From Craspedostauros australis (lineage: Eukaryota): DNA of 64,000 nt. Position 1 is the first letter of the stretch, and every line of letters starts with the position of its first letter. The stretch spans positions 1 through 64,000 of the forward strand of contig JALAGF010004851.1 of the NCBI GenBank assembly GCA_030167865.1, in the 5' to 3' direction. Positions 197 to 34,553 of this stretch are shown here, piece after piece. The notes beneath the pieces were generated by a model. It worked only from the letters and a program-made list of their open reading frames with translations. It ran no database searches and was not told the origin of the DNA. Both the position numbers and the translations under genes were made by a program.

Positions 197-858
197 ACGC
201 TGAATGCTAAACTTTTGGTTGTGAGGATGGATGTTGATACAATACACTCATAGCAAAGCAAAGCAGATTAGAGCGGAGTAAACGTTTGTAGAATGTGCTT
301 TCTCTGGAGAGAGAGAGTGTATGCGTGTGTGTGCATGCTGTGTTGTGCTAGTAGAGGAGAAGGTATCGCTGCTGAGTTTGAGTTCAACGAGGTTAATTGT
401 ATTTCTATAGGGAATGGAGAGCGTAGTTGTGATGGTGCTCTGTATTGGTAGTTGTACGGACATGCCAGTCGTACCAGAGTATCCATGTGTTGGAGCGTGT
501 TTATCAACGTTTTTTTCTGTTGTGAGATGATTGCTTGTGATGTAGGGGAGTGACGTGTGATGTGTGGAGGAAAGGTAAGCTGGCAAGATGGTGCATTCAA
601 AAGGACAAGGTCGGGCAAAGCAACAACTGTCGCCGGTCCCAAGTCGTTCGCTTGCCGTTACGAGTTGCCACAAGCAATGGTATTGTTCACGGACAATGCA
701 AAGCGCAGGGGATGGGTTAGTCTGTCGATATGATGCACGAGCACAACCAGTTCCCTCGCGTATCACTGGATTGATGCATCGTTCATCACTTCATATGTAG
801 GACGACAGGTGGAGGCGCCGTCCATCCATTGTCTGACGCATTTGGCTTGGTTTGGTTG

Positions 859-902
859 CTTTGTGTGGTTGAGTAGGAACAAAAGTTCCTTGTTTGTTTG
901 TT
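859..902 (-). promoter_or_regulatory. Conserved histone 3' element downstream of H2B (stem-loop AGGAAC-TTTT-GTTCCT at 890-875)
   Basis: Reverse complement is identical over 44 bp to 3537-3580 downstream of H2A. 6-bp stem with 4-nt T loop, A-rich 5' flank and ACTCA 3' flank. Confidence 0.7.
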
Positions 903-1179
903 TGTTTGTTTGTGTTTGTTGTTTTGTTTCTGTGTTGTTTTGTCTTCGTTTTGGCCGTAAGTTGACTGCAGTAATCAGTTGCTGATGCCTGTGGTTGGTA
1001 TTGTTGGTTCAAAGATGGATGGCACACATGTCATGCGCAACAGCCACACGACAAGCTCCGATGAATTCACATCGCTTCTCATCGTGTACTGCTACTTCAT
1101 GGTTCCACGGTTCACACCCACCTGGTCCTTGCACCATCCAAGTCTCAGTCGATCATACAGCATTGCTTCGGTACAACGC

Positions 1180-1533
1180 TTAGCTGGAGCTGAACTTGGT
1201 CACAGCCTTGGTTCCCTCAGAGACGGCGTGCTTGGCCAACTCTCCTGGAAGCATCAGGCGGACGGCAGTCTGGATCTCTCGTGAAGACAGAGTGGCCTTC
1301 TTGTTGTATGTGGCGAGCTTTCCTGCCTCGGTGGCGATACGCTCGAAGATATCGTTGATGAAGGAGTTCATGATGGACATTCCCTTCTTGGAGATTCCGG
1401 TATCTGGGTGGACCTGCTTCAGGACCTTGTAGATGTAAGACGAGTATGTCTCGGTACGCTTCTTGGACTTGGAGGATCCGGTGGATGCCTTCTTTGGTGT
1501 CTTGGCGGATTGCTTGGAGGGAGTCTTGGCCAT
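1180..1533 (-). CDS. H2B: Histone H2B
   Basis: MAKTPSKQ...[42 protein letters not shown]...[20 protein letters not shown] is the canonical H2B core. ATG at 1533 is directly preceded by TTGCAG. Likely 5'UTR intron 1729-1534 (AAG|GTAAGC donor). Confidence 0.98.
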
Positions 1534-2048
1534 CTGCAAGTGTTATACGTGAATGTGGTGAAATTGGATGAAGAAGGAAGGGGAGTACAGTATAACAGGG
1601 ACATGTGAGAAATCGGCGTTGATTCATCATGCATTGTGCACAAGTGGATTTCGATCAATTGTCCAAGGGAATTGGGTATCGCTGATGCTTGTATTGTTCC
1701 TTTACGTTATCCTTTGTGTCATTGCTTACCTTGTCAGTTGTTTGGTTGTTTGGTTGTAGTGGTGGTGATTGTTGATTTGAAAGTTGTTCAATTCGGTTTT
1801 ATGTTTGGACAAATGAACTTGTTTGTGTTTGAGGCAAAGACTTGGATGCGATGGAGTGCCAAGAAGGTGTTTTGTTGTGTTTGTTGTGTTTGTTGGTGGG
1901 AGAGATGGTGATAACGATGGAGATGATGATGATGATGATGATCTCAACGGCACGATTGTTGTTGGTGTCGTGCTTCTTGTCTGTGTCTCCTTGTTGTTGT
2001 TGTTCGATGTGGGTTTGGTCTGGTTCTGTTGCTGCTGATCGCTTTGGT

Positions 2049-2600
2049 TTCGATTTCTCTGTTCGCAGTTGCGTCCAGTATCGTGGTCTCGAACTCGACC
2101 ACCACAAACAAGTGACACCAACGACGTGGACGAATTGTGAATCGGCGCGCCATTCTGAAGTGCTCCAAAAGGGGGTGATGAGATATGGCGCGTGACTGTA
2201 ATATTGCGGGGTGGGATGTCGACAGGTTGGAATCGGCGAAGCAATGATGTACTGTGATGTGTAGATATATACGTGAGAAAGTGGCGCGCCCATCCCCGAA
2301 TGATGATATACTACGGGGGTGATATTGTTCAATCACGAACAATCGACCCCGATTTTGTTGTTCTCATTCGTGACCTGACTGATCACGACGCGCTCGTTTC
2401 GAATTTGACCAAGAGAGCGTGTGGGAACGGGCGCTTCTGTTTGCCGTTTGTTGTTGACGTTTCTGTCTCCTTGTTGTCTCTGTCTTGTTTCGCCTCTCTT
2501 GTGATCTCTCGTTCGCTGTGTTTCTTCCTTTTGGTCGCTTCACTCTGTTGCACTCCCACCACTCCACAACAGCAACAAACACGACAACAGAGACATCGAA
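2049..2600. promoter_or_regulatory. Bidirectional H2B/H2A promoter region
   Basis: Lies between head-to-head histone genes. GGCGCGCC at 2144 and 2283, GGGGGTGAT at 2171 and 2315, and mirrored AACAGAGA[A/C]ATCGAA at 2063-2049 (-) and 2586-2600 (+). Confidence 0.55.
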
Positions 2601-2701
2601 CTGTGCTGATCTGTTCATAAAACCAAACAACATCAATTTGCAACAGCAAACGAATTCACAAACACTCACCCAATCTACAACAACAAACAAACACATCAAT
2701 C

Positions 2702-3270
2702 ATGTCTGGTAAGTGTTGATGAAGTTGGAGTTCTGTGCGTACATGCACGTTTGTGTGTGTGCGATGTCGAATGTGTTCTGTTTGCAACGAAAGTGACCGT
2801 GACTGCCATCGCTCTTGTGACAACCATTCCACCCTGACTTCTCACACCCATCGCCATTCCTCTTCCATCTCACACCAACCATTCAACACATGACAACAAC
2901 AGGAAAAGGAAAAGGAGGCCGTGGCGAAAAGAAGGCCACAAGCGCATCTGCCAAGGCAGGACTTCAGTTCCCAGTCGGTCGTATCGGACGATACTTGCGT
3001 CAAGGAAAGTACGCCACACGAATGGGAGCAGGTGCCCCAGTGTACCTTGCTGCCGTTCTCGAGTACCTTTGCGCCGAGATTCTTGAGCTTGCAGGCAACG
3101 CCGCCCGTGACAACAAGAAGAGCCGTATTGTGCCGCGTCACATCACTCTGGCCGTGAAGAACGATGAGGAGCTGAACAGACTGCTGGGAGGAGTGACCAT
3201 TGCTAGCGGTGGTGTGCTGCCCAACATCCACGCAGTGCTTCTGCCAAAGAAGTCTTCTAGCAGCAAATAA
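2702..3270 (+). CDS. H2A: Histone H2A (2 exons: 2702-2708, 2903-3270)
   Basis: ATGTCTG|GTAAGT...ACAG|GAAAAGGA splices to MSGKGKGGR. Contains [24 protein letters not shown] and [15 protein letters not shown]. No C-terminal SQ motif. Confidence 0.98.
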
Positions 3271-3536
3271 GCGCTGGATGTCAACGCTCTCAATTGAAGG
3301 ACAACGACGGAGAGAAACATGGGGAGACTGATAGATTGATTGATGGCAACTGCGATTGCACTGATGCGTGGTGTTGAGAAAGGCCATGCACTACCATACT
3401 CTACAATGAGATGGCGTGGCATGACTTCACCGATACCACCACCAGCATCACATCCATCTGTCCAACCACTCATCCCCACAACTCCATGACAATTGCAGAC
3501 ACACAAACAAACAGAAAACAAAAACATACAAACAAC

Positions 3537-3580
3537 AACAAACAAACAAGGAACTTTTGTTCCTACTCAACCACACAAAG
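3537..3580 (+). promoter_or_regulatory. Conserved histone 3' element downstream of H2A (stem-loop AGGAAC-TTTT-GTTCCT at 3549-3564)
   Basis: AACAAACAAACA-AGGAAC-TTTT-GTTCCT-ACTCAACCACACAAAG, identical to the reverse complement of 859-902. Confidence 0.7.
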
Positions 3581-4165
3581 ACACACACACACACACGTCC
3601 AAACTACCAGCTGACAACCAACAACATGAATCAATGCACATTGCCCCTCTACTCTCCACCTTCGACTCTTGTTCGTCCTGACACTTCCAAACCATTATTG
3701 TAGACAACCCACGCACACACGCAGATTGGCCTTACAGCACTCTCAATACACCCAATAGACTTAACTTTCATCACTTCACACAACTACACTCTCCATATGA
3801 TTTTACTCGTACCGACACTTGTTATAACCCAGCCACCACAGCAGCACGCTGCAGAAGTCACATGCCCAACAATTCAAACAAGAAATCAACACAACAAAAG
3901 ATACCTGTCGTACTCACGCAATACATCCAGTCCCTCGACACATCACCATCTCGTGTCTCAAACATAATACTGTTCACACCCGTGTGACAACCAGACAATC
4001 ACCACCACACACATCAGCGCCATCCTCAACAAATTCACGAAACACAACAGAACAGAACAGAACGCTCCCACCACACTCATCCCCATCATCATCACTCTGC
4101 CATCATCGCCTCCACACTAACAACAACAACAATCCCGTCAATTATCAACCCAGACTCCAACCACC

Positions 4166-27498: not shown

Positions 27499-30400
27499 TC
27501 AGTTCTGCTGTTGCAAGTCTGCTGCTTCTGCTTGATCTCGTTGCTGTTGGAATGGCGCGAGGAACTGGACCAGGTCGGCGTGCCCTTGCGCCGCAGCAGC
27601 ATCTATCGGCCTCATTCCGAGTTGGTTGCGAGCATTCGTATCTGCCTCCACACCGTCTGTCACCATCAAATAACGAACCATTTTGAGGCATCCAAACCAG
27701 CACAGTATGTGCAATGGTCCATTGCCATCAACATTCCCGATGTTCACATCTGCGTGAGCACCTTCCACTAATTCCTTAATCACATCGTCGTATTGATTGG
27801 CGCCGTCTGCGAATGCTCTGCATGCGATGAACAGCGGCGTTTCGTTTCTCGAGTTGGCCAGGTCGGGATTAACACGATCGATGTCAGCCAAGATCCGAAC
27901 AATGCTCCAATGCCTGGCGCTGTCTGCGCCGTAGTGTTGGCATGTGAGATGCAGTGGCGTGTTGCCTTCGTCATCTTGAAGATTAGGATCAACGCTTTCC
28001 ACACCAGTCATGTACTCCACCACCTCAGGGTTCCCGCTCATACAGGCGGCATGCAATGGTGTCTGCCCTGTAGTGTCGGTGGCGTTGGTCTCAACACTGG
28101 CTGTCCCAACCAAATACTCCACGATAGCGAGGTTCCCGCTCAGGCAGGCCACATGCAATGGTGTCTGCCCCAAAATGTTGGCGGCGTTAATGTCAGCGCG
28201 GCCTGTTCCGACTAAAAGCTGCACCATCTGAGGGTTCCCGCTCATACAGGCGGCATGCAAGGGTGTCTGCCCAGTAGTGTCGGTGGCGTTGGTCTCAACA
28301 CGGTCTATCCCAACCAAATACTCCACGACATCGAGGTTCCCCTTCATGCAGGCGGCATGCAAGGGTGTCTGCCCTGTAGTGTCGGTGGCGTTGATATCAG
28401 CGCGGCATGTTCCGACTAACAGCTGCACCATCTGAGAGTTCCCGCTCATACAGGCGGCATGCAATGGTGTCTGCCCTGTAGTGTCGGTGGCGTTGATGTC
28501 AGCGTGGCCTGTTCCGACTAAAAGCTGCACCATCTGAGAGTTCCCGCTCATACAGGCGACATGCAATGGTGTCTGCCCTGTAGTGTCGGTGGCATTGATC
28601 TCAACACGGTCTATCCCAACCAAATACTCCACGACATCGAGGTTCCCCTTCATGCAGGCGACATGCAATGGTGTCTGCCCCAAGGTGTTGGGGGCGTTGA
28701 CATCGGCGTGCCCAGTCTCCACAAGATATCTAACGCCGTCCAAGTAAGCGTATGCACCACCGCATTGTAGGTGCAGCGAAGTATTGCCCTCATTGTCAGA
28801 GTCGTCAATTCCGAGGTTCCTCTGGGTCAAAAGATATTCGATAATTGCGTGATACTGGTAGTCATAGTCGTCGTCTTCGAATTCTTGTTCCTTGCACGCA
28901 ATGTGCAACGGCGTTTGACCAATTCCGTTTCGGGCATTGACGCTGACGCCGTCTCTTTCGGCCAAATCAACGAGCATGCCAAAGCACCCGCTCTTGCTTA
29001 TGAAGTGCAATGGCGCATTCCCCTCGATGTCCGGGATATTGATATCAGCATTTGCCTGGATCAGCCGATGTATCAGATCGCCGTGGAAATTGTCCGGACT
29101 GTACAGTTTGCACGCTTCGACCAGGGGCGTAGCGCGCTGTCGATTGACAGCATTGATGTTGATTTGTTCATGTTGAAGCAACGCCTCCACGACTTGCGGA
29201 TAGCCGTCGACAAATCCAGGATCGTACTCTCTACAAGCAATGTGGAGTGGAGTGTTGCCTTGAGAGTCTTGTGGATTTATCTCGATAGAGTCCGCGCCAA
29301 GCAGAATCCCTACCGTCTCCGGTTGCGCGAATTCAGCGGCGAGATGGAGAGCTGTTTGGCCCTCAGCATTCCGTATGTTCACATTGGTACGAAGAGCATC
29401 CACGAGCCACCTCACTACATCCGTCCGTGTCGTGGAAGCCACGCGATGAAGCATCGTGTCGCCTTTGGTGTCCTGGACGTCGGCATTGATGGTGATTCGA
29501 TCCGATTCGAGCAAGCACTCAATCACCGGCAAATGGTCATTCCGGTACGCGAGGAAGGGCGGTGTATTGTCGTCGGCATCAGGGATGTTGACGTCGATGG
29601 TGATATCATCGAATTGCAGGAAGAGCCGCAGGAGGTGCGTGAATCCACGCTCGCAAATGATATGAATCGACGTATCGCCGTCTATATTCTGAATGTTGAC
29701 ATTGATGCTCTGCGGATATGCCTCAATCAGTGTCCGAACCCAGTATGACTCTCCTGATCGACAGGCATAGTGAAGAGCCGTCTCGCCTCTTTCACCTTGA
29801 GCGTTGACATCGAGAGTCTCTTGTCCTGCTGTGACGAGGCATTCAACAATATCCCTGTGCCTATGGCGAGACGCGAGAAGTAGCGGAGTGTCGCCATTTG
29901 CATCCCGTTCATTGATAATGGCACCGATTTGCTCCGATCTCACCAACTCGCGGACCTCTCGCAATTGGCCAGATCGGCAAGCGTTGTGAAGACGTTCGAT
30001 CGTGGTACCGCCGCGACCATCTGCGCTGATGTTGCATTGCTCCGGGTCTGATGTCTCGCGCAAGGCACCTAAACTTGTGCGCATCTCCATTTGGCGTGGA
30101 GAAGTGTCTATCGGTGTGTTTTGGACATTGTCTTGACCGCCGCTGCTTGCTCGAAGTGCCGTCAAGTACTTGATCACGTCAGCTTGCGAATTATGCGCAG
30201 CTTCATCGTACGGTGTGTAACCGCTGCTGTTCTCGATGTCAAGGTCCACACGGACATATCCGGACTCGACCATACACTTCACTGCGTTGATGTGGCCCTC
30301 ACGGCAGGCAAGATGAAGTGGCGTGTCGCCATCGTGGTCTTGGACATTGGCATCAATGTCGGTGTGATGCGATTCCAATAGGTAGCTGACCACGTCGCAG

Positions 30401-33400
30401 CGCCCGAACCAACACGCCAGATGCAGCGGCGTATCGTCGTCATCGTTTCTGGCGTTGGCATCCACGGTCATCTCGTCAGCCTCAAGCAGGATCTGCACGA
30501 TGTCTCTATGCCCATACCTACATGCGAAATGCAGCGGTGTATAGCCGTCATTGTTCTGGATACTGGTGCAATCGCTGGGATCGACACTCGTCGAATGAAG
30601 CCTCAGAAGGAGCCTGACCAAAGCTGTGTGGCCGTGTTGGCAGGCTGTATGCAAGGGCGCGTTGCCGTGTTGGCCTTTGTTGTTGGACAGACCCAACCTC
30701 ACGAAGTATCTGACCATATTCTCGTGCCCACATCGATAGGCATGATACAAGGGGGTCTCGCCTGCGTTGTTCGTGAGTTGGGTCGTGGTCTTGGTCGCTC
30801 GTTTGATCATGTCGGTGACGTCAGAGGAATCCAACAGAAGCGCCAACATTGGCACATTCGCACTCGAACAAGCGCAATGGAGTGGTGTGTTTCCTTGACT
30901 GTTTTGAATGTGAACACTGCGTTCGATTGAGTTGGATTGGAGCAAGTGTTTCACCACGGATACATGGCCATGCAAGCACGAAAGATGCAATGCTGTGTCG
31001 CCGTTGGCATTCTGAGCGTTGCAGTCAACGTCGAATCGATCAGATTTGAGAAGAGCCTGCACCCACCCCAGAAGCCCTGACTGAGAAGCCATGTGCAACA
31101 AGGTGTTGCTGCCATCATCATCTGGCGAGTTGCCGTCAAGACTTGCTTGGTCCGGTTTGATCCAGTGGTGGATCCACTCACTGTCACCTGATTGACAGGC
31201 ACAATCGAGTGGCGTGTCGCCTTTCTCGTTCGTGATACTCATATCGAAGATGCTTCTTTCTGACTGCACCAAGTCTTCGATCAAAGCTGTGTGTCTTGAT
31301 CGAAACGCAAGGTGGAGCGGTGTATCACCGTCATGGTTCTTCATGCCGAAATGATTTTTGACTTGGTTAGATTCCACCAACTGCTTGGCGATGCCTCTTT
31401 GCCCATGCAAGCAGGCTAAATGGAAGGGCGTGTTGCCATTTTTGTCTCTGATGTCGGCATCGATGCTCGCTCGCTCCTTCTCCAGCAGGTATGTGCCAAT
31501 AGTGGGACTGTCTTCCTTACCCGAACAAGCAAGATGCAGCGCTGTTTCGCCATCGTCGTTTTGGGCGTTGATGTCAACGACGATGCCATCGGTTTCGACC
31601 AAAGCCCGTACCCATCCGAGAAGACCCGAACGGCAGGCCGCGTGCAACAGTGTGTCGCCATCGTTGTCGGTGTCTGGCGTGTTGCCATCTCGCCTTGCTT
31701 GATCTGCTTTGATCCATCCATGGATCCAGACCATGTTGCCCGACTGGCAAGCGGAGTGCATGAATGTCTTGCCGTTGCTGTGGATGTTGGTGTCTATCCT
31801 GATACGGTGTGTTTGGAGAAAGATATCCATGGCCTCCTTGTGCCCACTTTGGCACGCGAGGTCGAGGGCTGTCTGGCGAGAGTTGTTTTCGATGCTGGCA
31901 ATCGTCCTGATTCCATCGAACTCAAGCAAGCGCTCGATTGTCTCCTTGTCTCCATTCCGACTGGCAGCGTGAAGTGCTGTGTTGCCATCCCTATTCTTGA
32001 TACCCAAATCAAAATTCAGATTTTCATGTCGAAGAAGTTGCTCAACGGTGGCTTGGTGACCATTCCAACAGGCACAGTGGAGCGGCGTGTCTCCGGCTTG
32101 ATTCTGAGCGTTGACCTCGATGCTGCCGCCGTGTGAGCGCAGCAAGTCTAACACGATCTCGACATGTCCGTGGGAGCATGCAAGATGAAGGGCCGTGTCC
32201 TTGTGGCTGTTTGGGATGTTGAGCTTGATTCCGCGTGGGCCAGACCGAAAAATACACCCAACGATGTCTCGGCGACCTTTCCGGCAAGCGATGTGGAGCG
32301 GGGTGTCACCTTTGCCATCTTGCACATTGATATTGATCTGCATTGGTTGCGCTCCGAGAAGAGTCTCTACAACTCTTGCGTGGCCATGGAGGCAAGCGCT
32401 GTGAAGTGGTGTCTGTCCTTCTTTGTTCTTGGTGTTGATATCGATGCGCGGTTGGATAGGTTCGTGCTTCAAGAGATACCTAGCGATATCTTCGTGACCC
32501 CCGGAACAAGCGCAGTGAAGAGCTGTGTCGCCCTTGGCATTTTGTGCATTCACTTGCATCCCTGCGCCGTCCGATTCAACCAGCGCCTGTGCCATCTCTA
32601 AATTGCCAGATCGACATGCCCGGTGCAACCATGTGTTGCCACCTGCGTGATCCGGGGATTCGTCATAAGATTCCGGGAAAGCCATCTTCATCCAGTGACG
32701 GATCCAGTCCATGTCACCCGACTGACAAACAAGGTGTGATGGTGTGTGGCCCTCATTGTTTTGGGTGTGGAGGCTAATGCGTTGGTCATCGAGTGGCAAT
32801 AGACAATCCACAATATCCTTGTACCTGAATCGGCAGGCGAGATGGAGAGGAGTGTTACCGTCGGCGCCTTGCGCTATCATCGAATCTATCTTCGTATCGC
32901 CGTGCTCATGCAGTAGTTCGATGATATCTTTGTGGCCAAATTTGCAAGCACAATGGAGGGGCGTATAGCGTAGCGTGTCTTTGATGCGGGCATCGACGCT
33001 CATCTTGTTTGACTGTAGCATCCACTTGACCACATCCTTGCGTCCAAGGGAGCATGCAACATGAAGGGGAGTTTGACCCAAGTGATTTTGGATGTCAGCG
33101 TTGATTTTCGTTGGGGAATTTTCGACCAAGCACTCCAGCACTTGAATCTTCTCTCTCGAGCAAGCTCGGTGGAGCGGCGTGTTCCCATGCTTGTTCTTCG
33201 CGTTGAACTCGACTTTGAATCGCTTGGGTGTCATCAAACAAGCGATGACATCGGTTTTGCCATGCTCGCAGGCGAGATGGAGCAGGCTGTCGCCTTCGGC
33301 GTTTTCGATGTTGATCGCGGTGCTTGCGTTCCTCATTCGCAGCAAATACATCACGATTTCGCTGCGCTCGAGCTTGCAGGCAATATGAAGTGCCGTGTTG

Positions 33401-33519
33401 CCGTCCATATCCTTCTCACCAAAGCTGTTTTTTGCCAGGCCAAACCGGGTGATGCTTTGCACCTTCTTCAAGTTTCCGGAACGGCAAGCGTCGTGGAGCG
33501 ATGTTGCCCGTTCGCGCAT
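27499..33519 (-). CDS. Giant intronless ankyrin-repeat protein (2006 aa, about 54 repeats)
   Basis: About 54 G.T[PA]LH.AC-type repeats counted by eye across one open frame. No catalytic domain recognised. Confidence 0.9.
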   Translation of the reverse strand: MRERATSLHDACRSGNLKKVQSITRFGLAKNSFGEKDMDGNTALHIACKLERSEIVMYLLRMRNASTAINIENAEGDSLLHLACEHGKTDVIACLMTPKRFKVEFNAKNKHGNTPLHRACSREKIQVLECLVENSPTKINADIQNHLGQTPLHVACSLGRKDVVKWMLQSNKMSVDARIKDTLRYTPLHCACKFGHKDIIELLHEHGDTKIDSMIAQGADGNTPLHLACRFRYKDIVDCLLPLDDQRISLHTQNNEGHTPSHLVCQSGDMDWIRHWMKMAFPESYDESPDHAGGNTWLHRACRSGNLEMAQALVESDGAGMQVNAQNAKGDTALHCACSGGHEDIARYLLKHEPIQPRIDINTKNKEGQTPLHSACLHGHARVVETLLGAQPMQININVQDGKGDTPLHIACRKGRRDIVGCIFRSGPRGIKLNIPNSHKDTALHLACSHGHVEIVLDLLRSHGGSIEVNAQNQAGDTPLHCACWNGHQATVEQLLRHENLNFDLGIKNRDGNTALHAASRNGDKETIERLLEFDGIRTIASIENNSRQTALDLACQSGHKEAMDIFLQTHRIRIDTNIHSNGKTFMHSACQSGNMVWIHGWIKADQARRDGNTPDTDNDGDTLLHAACRSGLLGWVRALVETDGIVVDINAQNDDGETALHLACSGKEDSPTIGTYLLEKERASIDADIRDKNGNTPFHLACLHGQRGIAKQLVESNQVKNHFGMKNHDGDTPLHLAFRSRHTALIEDLVQSERSIFDMSITNEKGDTPLDCACQSGDSEWIHHWIKPDQASLDGNSPDDDGSNTLLHMASQSGLLGWVQALLKSDRFDVDCNAQNANGDTALHLSCLHGHVSVVKHLLQSNSIERSVHIQNSQGNTPLHCACSSANVPMLALLLDSSDVTDMIKRATKTTTQLTNNAGETPLYHAYRCGHENMVRYFVRLGLSNNKGQHGNAPLHTACQHGHTALVRLLLRLHSTSVDPSDCTSIQNNDGYTPLHFACRYGHRDIVQILLEADEMTVDANARNDDDDTPLHLACWFGRCDVVSYLLESHHTDIDANVQDHDGDTPLHLACREGHINAVKCMVESGYVRVDLDIENSSGYTPYDEAAHNSQADVIKYLTALRASSGGQDNVQNTPIDTSPRQMEMRTSLGALRETSDPEQCNISADGRGGTTIERLHNACRSGQLREVRELVRSEQIGAIINERDANGDTPLLLASRHRHRDIVECLVTAGQETLDVNAQGERGETALHYACRSGESYWVRTLIEAYPQSINVNIQNIDGDTSIHIICERGFTHLLRLFLQFDDITIDVNIPDADDNTPPFLAYRNDHLPVIECLLESDRITINADVQDTKGDTMLHRVASTTRTDVVRWLVDALRTNVNIRNAEGQTALHLAAEFAQPETVGILLGADSIEINPQDSQGNTPLHIACREYDPGFVDGYPQVVEALLQHEQININAVNRQRATPLVEACKLYSPDNFHGDLIHRLIQANADINIPDIEGNAPLHFISKSGCFGMLVDLAERDGVSVNARNGIGQTPLHIACKEQEFEDDDYDYQYHAIIEYLLTQRNLGIDDSDNEGNTSLHLQCGGAYAYLDGVRYLVETGHADVNAPNTLGQTPLHVACMKGNLDVVEYLVGIDRVEINATDTTGQTPLHVACMSGNSQMVQLLVGTGHADINATDTTGQTPLHAACMSGNSQMVQLLVGTCRADINATDTTGQTPLHAACMKGNLDVVEYLVGIDRVETNATDTTGQTPLHAACMSGNPQMVQLLVGTGRADINAANILGQTPLHVACLSGNLAIVEYLVGTASVETNATDTTGQTPLHAACMSGNPEVVEYMTGVESVDPNLQDDEGNTPLHLTCQHYGADSARHWSIVRILADIDRVNPDLANSRNETPLFIACRAFADGANQYDDVIKELVEGAHADVNIGNVDGNGPLHILCWFGCLKMVRYLMVTDGVEADTNARNQLGMRPIDAAAAQGHADLVQFLAPFQQQRDQAEAADLQQQN
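27985..28698 (-). repeat. Seven tandem 102-bp near-identical ankyrin-coding units
   Basis: Recurrent DNA ggtgtctgccctgtagtgtcggtggc at 102-bp spacing, encoding NATDTTGQTPLH.ACM.GN... Confidence 0.9.
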
Positions 33520-34553
33520 GTTTGTTGCTTGTGATCGGTTCTGTTTGTTGGTTGGCGTCTTTGGTTAGTTTCGGTGAGGAGCACGAGTGGCATGCGAACC
33601 GAGCACATACGTGCAGAGTAGCAGAAAAAGGGTATTGCTGGACAAGTGAGCATCAGCTCTCGGGGGGCGACTATGGGCACGAGCACGGGCATGAACACGA
33701 GCGCCTCACATCGCGTGCAGGTCTTCGTGAGCTCACACTGCGCTCATGAAGTTCGACGAAGCGATGTGATCTTGTTCCTGCGGTCATCTGCACTGCCTTG
33801 TTGCCTCACTTCTCACCAACACCGCACCAGCACAATGGTGTTCATGTTGGCGAGAGACACGCGCCAACGGATGAACATACTCGTTAGATCGCATGCAGTT
33901 TTCATACCTGTGATGGTCTTGTGAGCTTCTTCGCGAGAAGGTGTCAGAGTTCGATGGTATGGCACGATCTCCTCAGGTCGCACAGAGATGTGCAAGTATG
34001 GCAAAAGATTGTGTTTGGCGTTGTGGGGAGAAGGGTGCCGCGCATGTTTGCTCCGCCCATGGCGTCGGTTGTGAGGGGGTGGGAATGCCCTCAAAGATTT
34101 GAGGGAGTGGCATCGTCGTCGAGTATCTTTGTTGTGTTCGCCATAGATGGTTGCGGTGTCCCCCATAATCGCTCCCATAATCGCACCCCCTCGAGCCCAA
34201 CTGTTCTTTTTCGCTTCTCTTCGTCTCAACGCTTCTCATCGAAGGTTCTTCCAGAACTTTCCCAACAACGACAACAGACGGATAGGCGGGCAGACGTAAT
34301 GACATTGATCGCACCCGAAATTGGAGATACGAATGCGACCGACATCCACAAACAAAGACAACGCGAGGAGGAGTGCGAGGACACGTTGTCGTATGAGAAC
34401 GGGACGGCTGCTGTCTGGTCTGCGATCAACCCTGTTACTATGACCACCAGTACAATAGTCATACCATGCGACCTGTGAGGGACGAGAACGCTGACCACGA
34501 ATCCAAAACTGCGGGGTGTGGTGCCGTTGCCATTCTGCGCCCTACCTGTGAAC

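Follow-up and report, generated by a model that had tools for sequence, protein, structure and literature searches.

Outside animals and green algae, the formation of histone mRNA 3' ends is still an unsettled matter. The closest described system is the SLBP/U7 histone stem-loop, represented by the Rfam family Histone3 (RF00032), membership of which requires a covariance model score at or above the gathering threshold of 34 bits. It combines a 6-bp stem and a 4-nt loop with A/C-rich unpaired flanks and with ACCCA or ACCA in the 3' flank, and pyrimidines are expected at positions 3–6 of its 5' arm (GGYYYU/ARRRCC). Such a stem-loop would be expected within tens of nucleotides of the stop codon, behind every replication-type core histone gene, in an organism that encodes SLBP (PF15247), U7 snRNA, LSM10 and LSM11 and whose histone mRNAs stop after the stem and carry no poly(A). 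Divergent "SL-like" hairpins 3' of histone genes have been described in stramenopiles and other protists by a preprint (Zhao, Bond and Ni Leathlobhair, bioRxiv 10.64898/2026.10.14.759114), which characterizes them as "degenerate, distal", defines them as any 6-bp/4-nt hairpin, one mismatch allowed, within 300 nt, and in its main text makes no mention of diatoms. A literature search on diatom histone stem-loops, SLBP or histone mRNA polyadenylation returned nothing relevant. As to diatom mRNA ends in general, Zhao et al. (2019, PMC6413133) examined two species in which UAA prevails among the near-upstream poly(A) motifs, with 86.5% and 78.2% of the sites, the remaining 14–22% being without UAA.

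The locus considered here lies in the window, i.e., the whole 64-kb stretch of DNA from the diatom Craspedostauros australis that was analysed, and consists of a divergent histone gene pair whose first-pass assignment to H2A and H2B is supported by Pfam, with Histone and Histone_H2A_C matching at 2821–3267 (+) and Histone at 1183–1542 (–). The H2A gene (2702..3270, +) is of the canonical type, its C-terminus being KKSSSSK without an SQ motif, and is composed of exon 1 (2702–2708), a putative intron (2709–2902) and exon 2 (2903–3267), followed by the stop codon TAA (3268–3270); the splice sites are those suggested by reading the sequence, and an in-frame ATG at 2890 would permit an intron-less reading. 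The H2B gene (1180..1533, –) has 117 uninterrupted codons and a TAA stop at 1182–1180, so that the earlier statement that the genes have introns fails for the H2B coding sequence and holds for H2A only as far as its putative intron; GTAAG/CAG sites suggest a 5'-UTR intron of H2B at about 1536–1729. The region common to the pair (1534..2701), which comprises the divergent promoter and the 5' UTRs, contains two GGCGCGCC palindromes (2144–2151 and 2283–2290). The H2B protein shares 97% identity with its Seminavis robusta counterpart and has no exact match in the sequence collection searched. Among the 278 ORFs of at least 100 aa in the window there were no further histone matches, neither H3, H4 or H1 nor a second H2A or H2B. 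The PBGD of the window has a best identity of 88%, its named matches all being diatoms, and the genes neighbouring the histone pair are spaced so as to permit UTRs of 500 nt.

The 3' regions of the two genes share a 44-nt module, present at 3537..3580 (+) downstream of H2A and, in the same mRNA sense, at 859..902 (–) downstream of H2B, which is made up of a 12-nt A/C leader, a 16-nt hairpin and a 16-nt tail (ACTCAACCACACAAAG). The first-pass annotation had reported this pair, and it is real, with 0 mismatches at both positions; its distances are likewise exact, the stem beginning 278 nt past the stop codon of H2A and 289 nt past that of H2B. Even when up to 3 mismatches are allowed, the 44-mer has exactly two sites in the window and none in 100 dinucleotide shuffles, and the 16-nt hairpin core occurs only at 875–890 (–) and 3549–3564 (+). 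That the UTRs are otherwise unalignable is confirmed by blastn of the two downstream regions, which gives a single significant match (79 nt, 89.9% identity, E=7e-21, 3503–3580 vs 935–859), the next-best ones having E values of at least 0.007 and being mostly of low complexity. The match stops precisely at the final base of the 44-mer, and its mismatches all fall in the upstream (ACAAAC)n-like part (35 positions), none in the module. This upstream part corresponds to an A/C-rich, G/U-poor leader without predicted pairing on the H2A side (3503..3536, +) and to an A/C-rich leader on the H2B side (903..935, –), the two resembling each other without being identical. By simple arithmetic, zero changes in 44 positions have a probability of about 0.01 at the average divergence of the 79-nt block (about 0.10), and because this is improbable the module can be regarded as a discrete constrained unit. 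Its conserved flanks are asymmetric in both copies. A separate alignment of the downstream regions covers 66 nt at 86% identity.

The hairpin, AGGAAC-UUUU-GUUCCU, has a 6-bp stem and a 4-nt loop in both copies (3549..3564, + and 875..890, –). Its predicted fold, ((((((....)))))), has a minimum free energy of –7.9 kcal/mol, accounts for 0.91 of the ensemble and has a z-score of –3.47, and none of 200 shuffles folded as well. It is the dominant predicted structure and an isolated one, the A/C-rich flanks being predicted to be unpaired. The 6-bp/4-nt architecture alone is uninformative, since the window has 23 perfect hairpins of this form and 9.6% of its 300-nt windows hold one; none of the other 21 has A/C-rich flanks. 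The one-mismatch criterion of the preprint is satisfied by 77% of the 300-nt windows in the 64 kb and cannot, for this reason, separate signal from noise. The module fits the preprint's description, but differs from the SL-like hairpins described there in its evidence, which is exact identity between two non-homologous UTRs. As both copies are identical, no covariation signal is obtainable from the pair.

For the comparison with the SLBP/U7 stem-loop, 56 loci were collected by an H2B protein scan of a bacterial/archaeal collection, in which they are eukaryote-like histone contigs inside MAG records; their H2B has a best identity of 64–88%, none being closely related to the window, and they serve as a positive control, not as orthologues. 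Twenty of the fetched loci were searched with RF00032, which gave 42 stem-loop matches distributed over 13 of them. The canonical cores read from the comparison loci (GGCTCT, GGCCCT, GGTCTT, GGCCTT, AGCCCT and AGCTTT) are all pyrimidine at positions 3–6. In 20 distinct H2A/H2B pairs of other eukaryotes (the first H2A and first H2B of each locus, duplicates dropped), the longest common block 3' of the stops consisted of flank, stem-loop and flank in 11 pairs and reached 55–58 nt. In the C. australis window, by contrast, RF00032 has no match at the gathering threshold anywhere, nor at E≤10 in 700–3800 or in a 71-nt search of 3525–3595. The first-pass proposal of an SLBP-type architecture is supported in part, by the 6-bp/4-nt hairpin, the A/C-rich flanks and the compact block common to H2A and H2B of a divergent pair, and is not supported as regards RF00032 and the 5' arm. 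Further points of likeness are the G-C second stem pair, the U at loop positions 1 and 3, as in canonical examples, and the 3' flank ACUCA, which resembles ACCCA/ACCA. The 5' arm, on the other hand, reads R-R-R-R-R-Y (AGGAAC) and not R-R-Y-Y-Y-Y, with G, A, A and C at positions 3–6, and its closing pair is C-G; beyond AAAG the module has no clear purine-rich downstream element. That the stem is different and lies unusually far from the stop was a further first-pass claim, and rightly so: the 278 and 289 nt compare with 7–104 nt in the comparison loci (7–46 nt for the common blocks, and as much as 79–104 nt in two loci, L003 and L017). In L009, whose H2A comes closest to that of the window (82.7%), the 420 nt that follow H2B are free of perfect 6/4 hairpins. 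The 21-nt hairpin plus ACTCA has no exact match in the bacterial/archaeal contig collection, where only contaminating contigs could match. No SLBP domain was found among the 278 ORFs and no U7 at gathering, a result that concerns the 64-kb window and says nothing of the genome.

The two histone 3' regions also stand apart from canonical diatom poly(A) sites. Neither H2A nor H2B has a TAA within 450 nt of its stop, the TAA-free stretches extending over 3271..3761 (+; first TAA at 3762–3764, 491 nt past the stop) and 720..1179 (–; first TAA at 719–717, 460 nt past the stop), whereas 16 of 17 control genes of the window have at least one. The difference corresponds to a Fisher p of about 0.018 by arithmetic, in a comparison of 2 with 17 genes whose ends are approximate and in which the histone UTRs are also U-poor; dinucleotide shuffles give probabilities of 0.019 and 0.005 for the absence of TAA from the two histone regions. 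The 100 nt upstream of the hairpin are A/C-rich and U-poor and show no joint A/U rise, which also sets them apart from canonical sites. What agrees with such sites is the position of the hairpin, about 300 nt past the stop, a normal UTR length in this genome: the 16 control genes with a TAA have their first one 10–367 nt past the stop, a range that takes in a UTR of about 300 nt.

Taken as a whole, the 44-nt block may be described as a candidate RNA hairpin specific to histones, with a role in stability or in the formation of the 3' end, a reading to which a probability of about one half is given. It resembles a diverged form of the signal that ends histone mRNAs in animals, and its function remains putative; the candidate histone specificity reflects two copies at one locus. 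In favour of an RNA element, the two copies are oriented alike with respect to transcription and lie at similar distances from the stop, and the blocks left by canonical stem-loops in other H2A/H2B pairs match the anatomy of the module, an analogy which favours a role at the 3' end, as does the lack of TAA in the 450 nt behind both stops. With divergent genes, the same sense on the mRNA is indistinguishable from an inverted repeat in the DNA. Acting at the RNA level, the module would present an isolated 6-bp/UUUU hairpin between the unstructured A/C-rich leader on its 5' side and the fixed 16-nt tail on its 3' side, and selection would keep the H2A and H2B mRNAs from diverging in it, which would allow a single hairpin-binding factor to act on both in the same way. 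Its likeliest job would be 3'-end formation and/or S-phase-coupled stability; the pre-mRNA would presumably be cleaved in ACUCA/ACCA, a few nucleotides beyond the stem, so that a 3' UTR of about 300 nt would result. The fixed tail, with AAAG at its end, could be the downstream determinant, and ACCACACAAAG is the stretch where complementarity to any U7 5' end might be sought. The working principle would be like that of the SLBP/U7 histone end signal, with a different stem sequence. A more far-reaching version, in which diatoms end histone mRNAs in a lineage-specific manner, by cleavage just beyond a divergent stem-loop that has a purine-rich 5' arm and lies about 280 nt from the stop codon, without UAA-dependent polyadenylation, the hairpin being recognised by an SLBP that has co-evolved with it or by some unrelated protein that binds hairpins, is doubtful, and if true would mean that a major algal group has independently remodelled the ancient SLBP/U7 system.

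The recent surveys infer "degenerate, distal" stramenopile stem-loops by a criterion that most random sequence passes, and a module that two unrelated histone UTRs share without a single difference makes a much stronger candidate, one that can be tested directly. With it, 3'-end mapping, pull-downs and reporter mutagenesis in diatoms have a defined 44-nt RNA to work on. Should it define the mRNA end, the stem-loop strategy would prove to tolerate a complete change of both stem sequence and position, and a compact cell-cycle-linked terminator would become available for diatom engineering; should it not, it would still be a co-regulation element for the H2A/H2B pair.

The closest competitor of the 3'-end reading, a possible though tentative one, is that the hairpin is a regulatory element internal to the 3' UTR, where a protein bound to it would tune stability, translation or localisation without defining the end, the mRNAs being polyadenylated a little downstream of the first UAA, about 480–520 nt past the stop. 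The lack of an RF00032 match suits such an element, as do the gene spacing mentioned above and the first TAAs, which lie at like offsets (+491 in H2A, +460 in H2B) in the loosely similar context AGACT(T)AAC; the conservation around these distal TAAs is, however, not significant, and the resulting UTRs would be longer than the stretch from stop to first TAA in any of the 16 control genes with a TAA (maximum 367 nt). Diatom H2B transcripts are present in the MMETSP transcriptomes, which are reportedly poly(A)-selected, and this speaks for at least partial polyadenylation of histone mRNAs in diatoms, a further point for an internal element. The sharp 3' boundary and the fixed 16-nt tail, on the contrary, are more like a processing signal than a simple protein-binding hairpin.

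A DNA-level or purely historical origin, in which the copies are the arms of an inverted repeat around a 2.7-kb histone cassette and have no role in the mRNA, is improbable, whether the arms are taken as the terminal repeats bounding a unit that was mobile or duplicated, as a gene-conversion tract, as a palindromic protein-binding or boundary site, or as members of a low-copy repeat family. The inverted-repeat geometry, with a sharp outer and a decaying inner edge, would be in keeping with it, and the core AGGAAC-N4-GTTCCT is a DNA palindrome; but a dimeric palindrome-binding site does not require the conserved asymmetric flanks, no third copy is found within the 64 kb even at 3 mismatches, no transposase-like domain lies in or adjoining the cassette, and no target-site duplication is apparent, the bases outside the arms (...GGTTTGGTTG vs ACACACACAC...) differing when compared by eye. 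Chance coincidence of low-complexity A/C-rich UTR sequence is effectively refuted: A/C-rich tracts are indeed common in the UTRs of the window, and perfect hairpins of this form are as frequent as stated above, but the shuffles and the blastn E value leave it next to no room, and 32 of the 44 identical bases, those of the hairpin and tail, are not of low complexity. On the antisense strand the hairpin is followed by a U/G-rich run, as in a bacterial-type terminator, a reading that was rejected as irrelevant in a eukaryote; as for an HSE or a nuclear-receptor-like DNA palindrome, we take the spacing of the hairpin core to be wrong for either.

The divergent histone gene pair H2B/H2A (859–3580) is bordered by a 44-nt module, AACAAACAAACA-AGGAAC-TTTT-GTTCCT-ACTCAACCACACAAAG, which occurs exactly at 3537–3580 (+) and 859–902 (–), and 0/100 shuffles yield any match to it. 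The first-pass annotation had reported this identical element downstream of both genes, with the stem starting 278 nt past the H2A stop and 289 nt past the H2B stop, and both statements are confirmed. In a blastn comparison of the 890 nt downstream of H2A with the 979 nt downstream of H2B, the single significant alignment covers 79 nt at 89.9% identity (E = 7e-21) and stops at the final base of the 44-mer; all its mismatches lie in the 35 upstream (ACAAAC)n-like positions and 0 in the module, which, if changes were spread evenly at the mean rate of the block, would remain change-free with a probability of about 0.01 by our arithmetic. All other alignments lie at E ≥ 0.007 and mostly cover A/C low-complexity sequence, one 18-mer excepted, in agreement with the earlier description of the UTRs as otherwise largely unalignable. 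This 18-mer, CACAACTAC[A/G]CTCTCCAT, forms a second inverted-repeat pair at 3779–3796 (+) and 414–431 (–), 509 nt past the H2A stop and 749 nt past the H2B stop (17/18 positions matching, E = 0.007 in that small search), and could be due to chance or be a second flank element of the histone cassette.

As RNA, the hairpin (3549–3564, +; 875–890, –) is predicted to fold as ((((((....)))))), with –7.9 kcal/mol, 0.91 of the ensemble and z = –3.47 (0/200 shuffles as stable), its flanks remaining unpaired in predicted folds of 121-nt contexts. Perfect Watson-Crick 6-bp/4-nt hairpins number 23 in the window and are present in 9.6% of 300-nt windows, and those with one mismatch number 333 and are present in 77%. 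Because such hairpins are so frequent, one lying near a histone gene carries no weight, and what counts as evidence for the candidate element is that two non-homologous UTR segments are identical, not that they share this architecture. A 2026 preprint describes distal, poorly conserved stem-loops in Stramenopiles, and the 77% background bears on it, since the same one-mismatch criterion within 300 nt is used there (10.64898/2026.10.14.759114). The likeliest explanation of the 44-nt module is a candidate histone-specific RNA hairpin that may act in 3′-end formation and/or stability (probability about 0.5); the overall reading of the first-pass annotation is partly supported, the element itself being confirmed.

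The same architecture as the SLBP stem-loop had also been proposed, and this holds for the stem and loop sizes, the G at stem position 2, the U in the first and third places of the loop and the A/C-rich flanks. By contrast, the 5′ arm AGGAAC has purines at positions 3–5, where every canonical core examined has pyrimidines, the closing pair is C-G, unlike canonical examples, the 3′ flank reads ACUCA...ACCA instead of ACC(C)A, and the hairpin lies 278/289 nt past the stop vs at most 104 nt in the comparison loci. RF00032, the Rfam family of replication-dependent histone mRNA 3′ stem-loops, gave no match to the hairpin at E ≤ 10, either in 3.1 kb or in a 71-nt search, and no Rfam family reached its gathering threshold in the window. 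The hairpin is therefore like the family in layout and departs from it in two tested membership features and in model score.

The comparison loci come from an H2B protein scan of a bacterial/archaeal genome collection, which returned 56 eukaryote-like histone loci within MAG records and no close relative, and which served as a control; a scan of the collection with the hairpin DNA gave no match. Among 20 distinct H2A/H2B pairs (in each locus the first match for either gene, duplicates dropped), the longest common downstream block was the canonical stem-loop with its flanks in 11, beginning 7–46 nt past the stop and measuring up to 55–58 nt. As positive control, 20 of the 56 loci were searched with RF00032, and 13 of these 20 yielded a total of 42 stem-loops. 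Two loci, L003 (1043+79) and L017 (5274+104), have canonical-looking hairpins, AGCTTT-TTTA-AAAGCT and GGTCTT-TTTC-AAGACC, 79 and 104 nt past the H2B stop, with no RF00032 match at gathering, which suggests that stop distance and model score vary beyond the textbook picture. Many of the 56, including L038, L039 and L047, which additionally bear U1, U2 and 5S genes, are eukaryotic histone repeat units on contigs filed as bacterial/archaeal MAGs, indicating eukaryotic contamination of those bins.

UAA is the only dominant near-upstream poly(A) motif, at 86.5% of sites in T. pseudonana and 78.2% in P. tricornutum (PMC6413133). No TAA lies within 450 nt past the stop of H2A or of H2B, the first being at +491 (3762–3764) and +460 (719–717), respectively, while 16/17 control genes of the window, their ends approximated by ORF ends, have at least one, the first at 10–367 nt (Fisher's exact p ~0.018, our arithmetic); when the two histone regions are dinucleotide-shuffled, P(0) is 0.019 and 0.005. 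TAA is scarce window-wide (0.0026 per nt per strand, by our arithmetic about five-fold under base-composition prediction), and despite this 16/17 control 3′ regions have it. The absence modestly favours an unusual 3′-end mechanism at or near the hairpin, and equally allows long UTRs ending past the distal TAAs, in which the hairpin would be an internal regulatory element of polyadenylated histone mRNAs, an explanation we consider rather unlikely. This last explanation is favoured by the diatom H2B transcripts in MMETSP transcriptomes, which count against strict non-polyadenylation, those libraries reportedly being poly(A)-selected, although in animals such selection also captures some non-adenylated histone mRNA. 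A putative non-polyadenylated, SLBP-like histone mRNA pathway in diatoms appears unlikely, and the literature searched contained no published diatom histone 3′ hairpin or diatom SLBP.

The module might instead be a DNA-level or historical repeat, as its copies flank a 2.7-kb cassette in inverted orientation and, with one divergent pair only, mRNA sense is inseparable from DNA inversion. However, no target-site duplication is seen outside the arms, no further copy (≤3 mismatches) occurs within 64 kb and no transposase-like domain lies nearby, and we consider such a repeat improbable.

Both histone genes had been described as having introns. The H2B CDS (1533–1183, –; stop 1182–1180) has 117 uninterrupted codons, and we infer a 5′-UTR intron only. 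H2A (+) would start at ATG 2702 and continue in exon 2 (2903–3267; stop 3268–3270) after a 194-nt GT-AG intron (2709–2902), its splice sites read from the sequence; the spliced N-terminus, MSG-KGKGG, is presumably of canonical type, and the intron is qualified by an alternative intron-less start at the in-frame ATG 2890–2892, 13 nt 5′ of the putative exon 2 (MTTTGKGK...). The common promoter contains a (GAT)n microsatellite (1915–1945) and two GGCGCGCC palindromes (2144–2151 and 2283–2290), of which the whole window has 5 vs 1.3 expected (0/100 shuffles reach 5); we take these to resemble E2F-type cell-cycle promoter sites, with which S-phase transcription would fit.

The window is diatom DNA, because the best named relatives of its porphobilinogen deaminase are all diatoms (≤88% identity) and its H2B shares 97% identity with the Seminavis robusta protein, an identical H2B being absent from the protein collection searched. 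A Pfam scan of 278 stop-to-stop ORFs (≥100 aa, whole window) found one H2A and one H2B only, with no H3, H4, H1 or SLBP domain among them. At 27502–33564 (–), a single open frame of 2021 codons consists almost wholly of ankyrin repeats.
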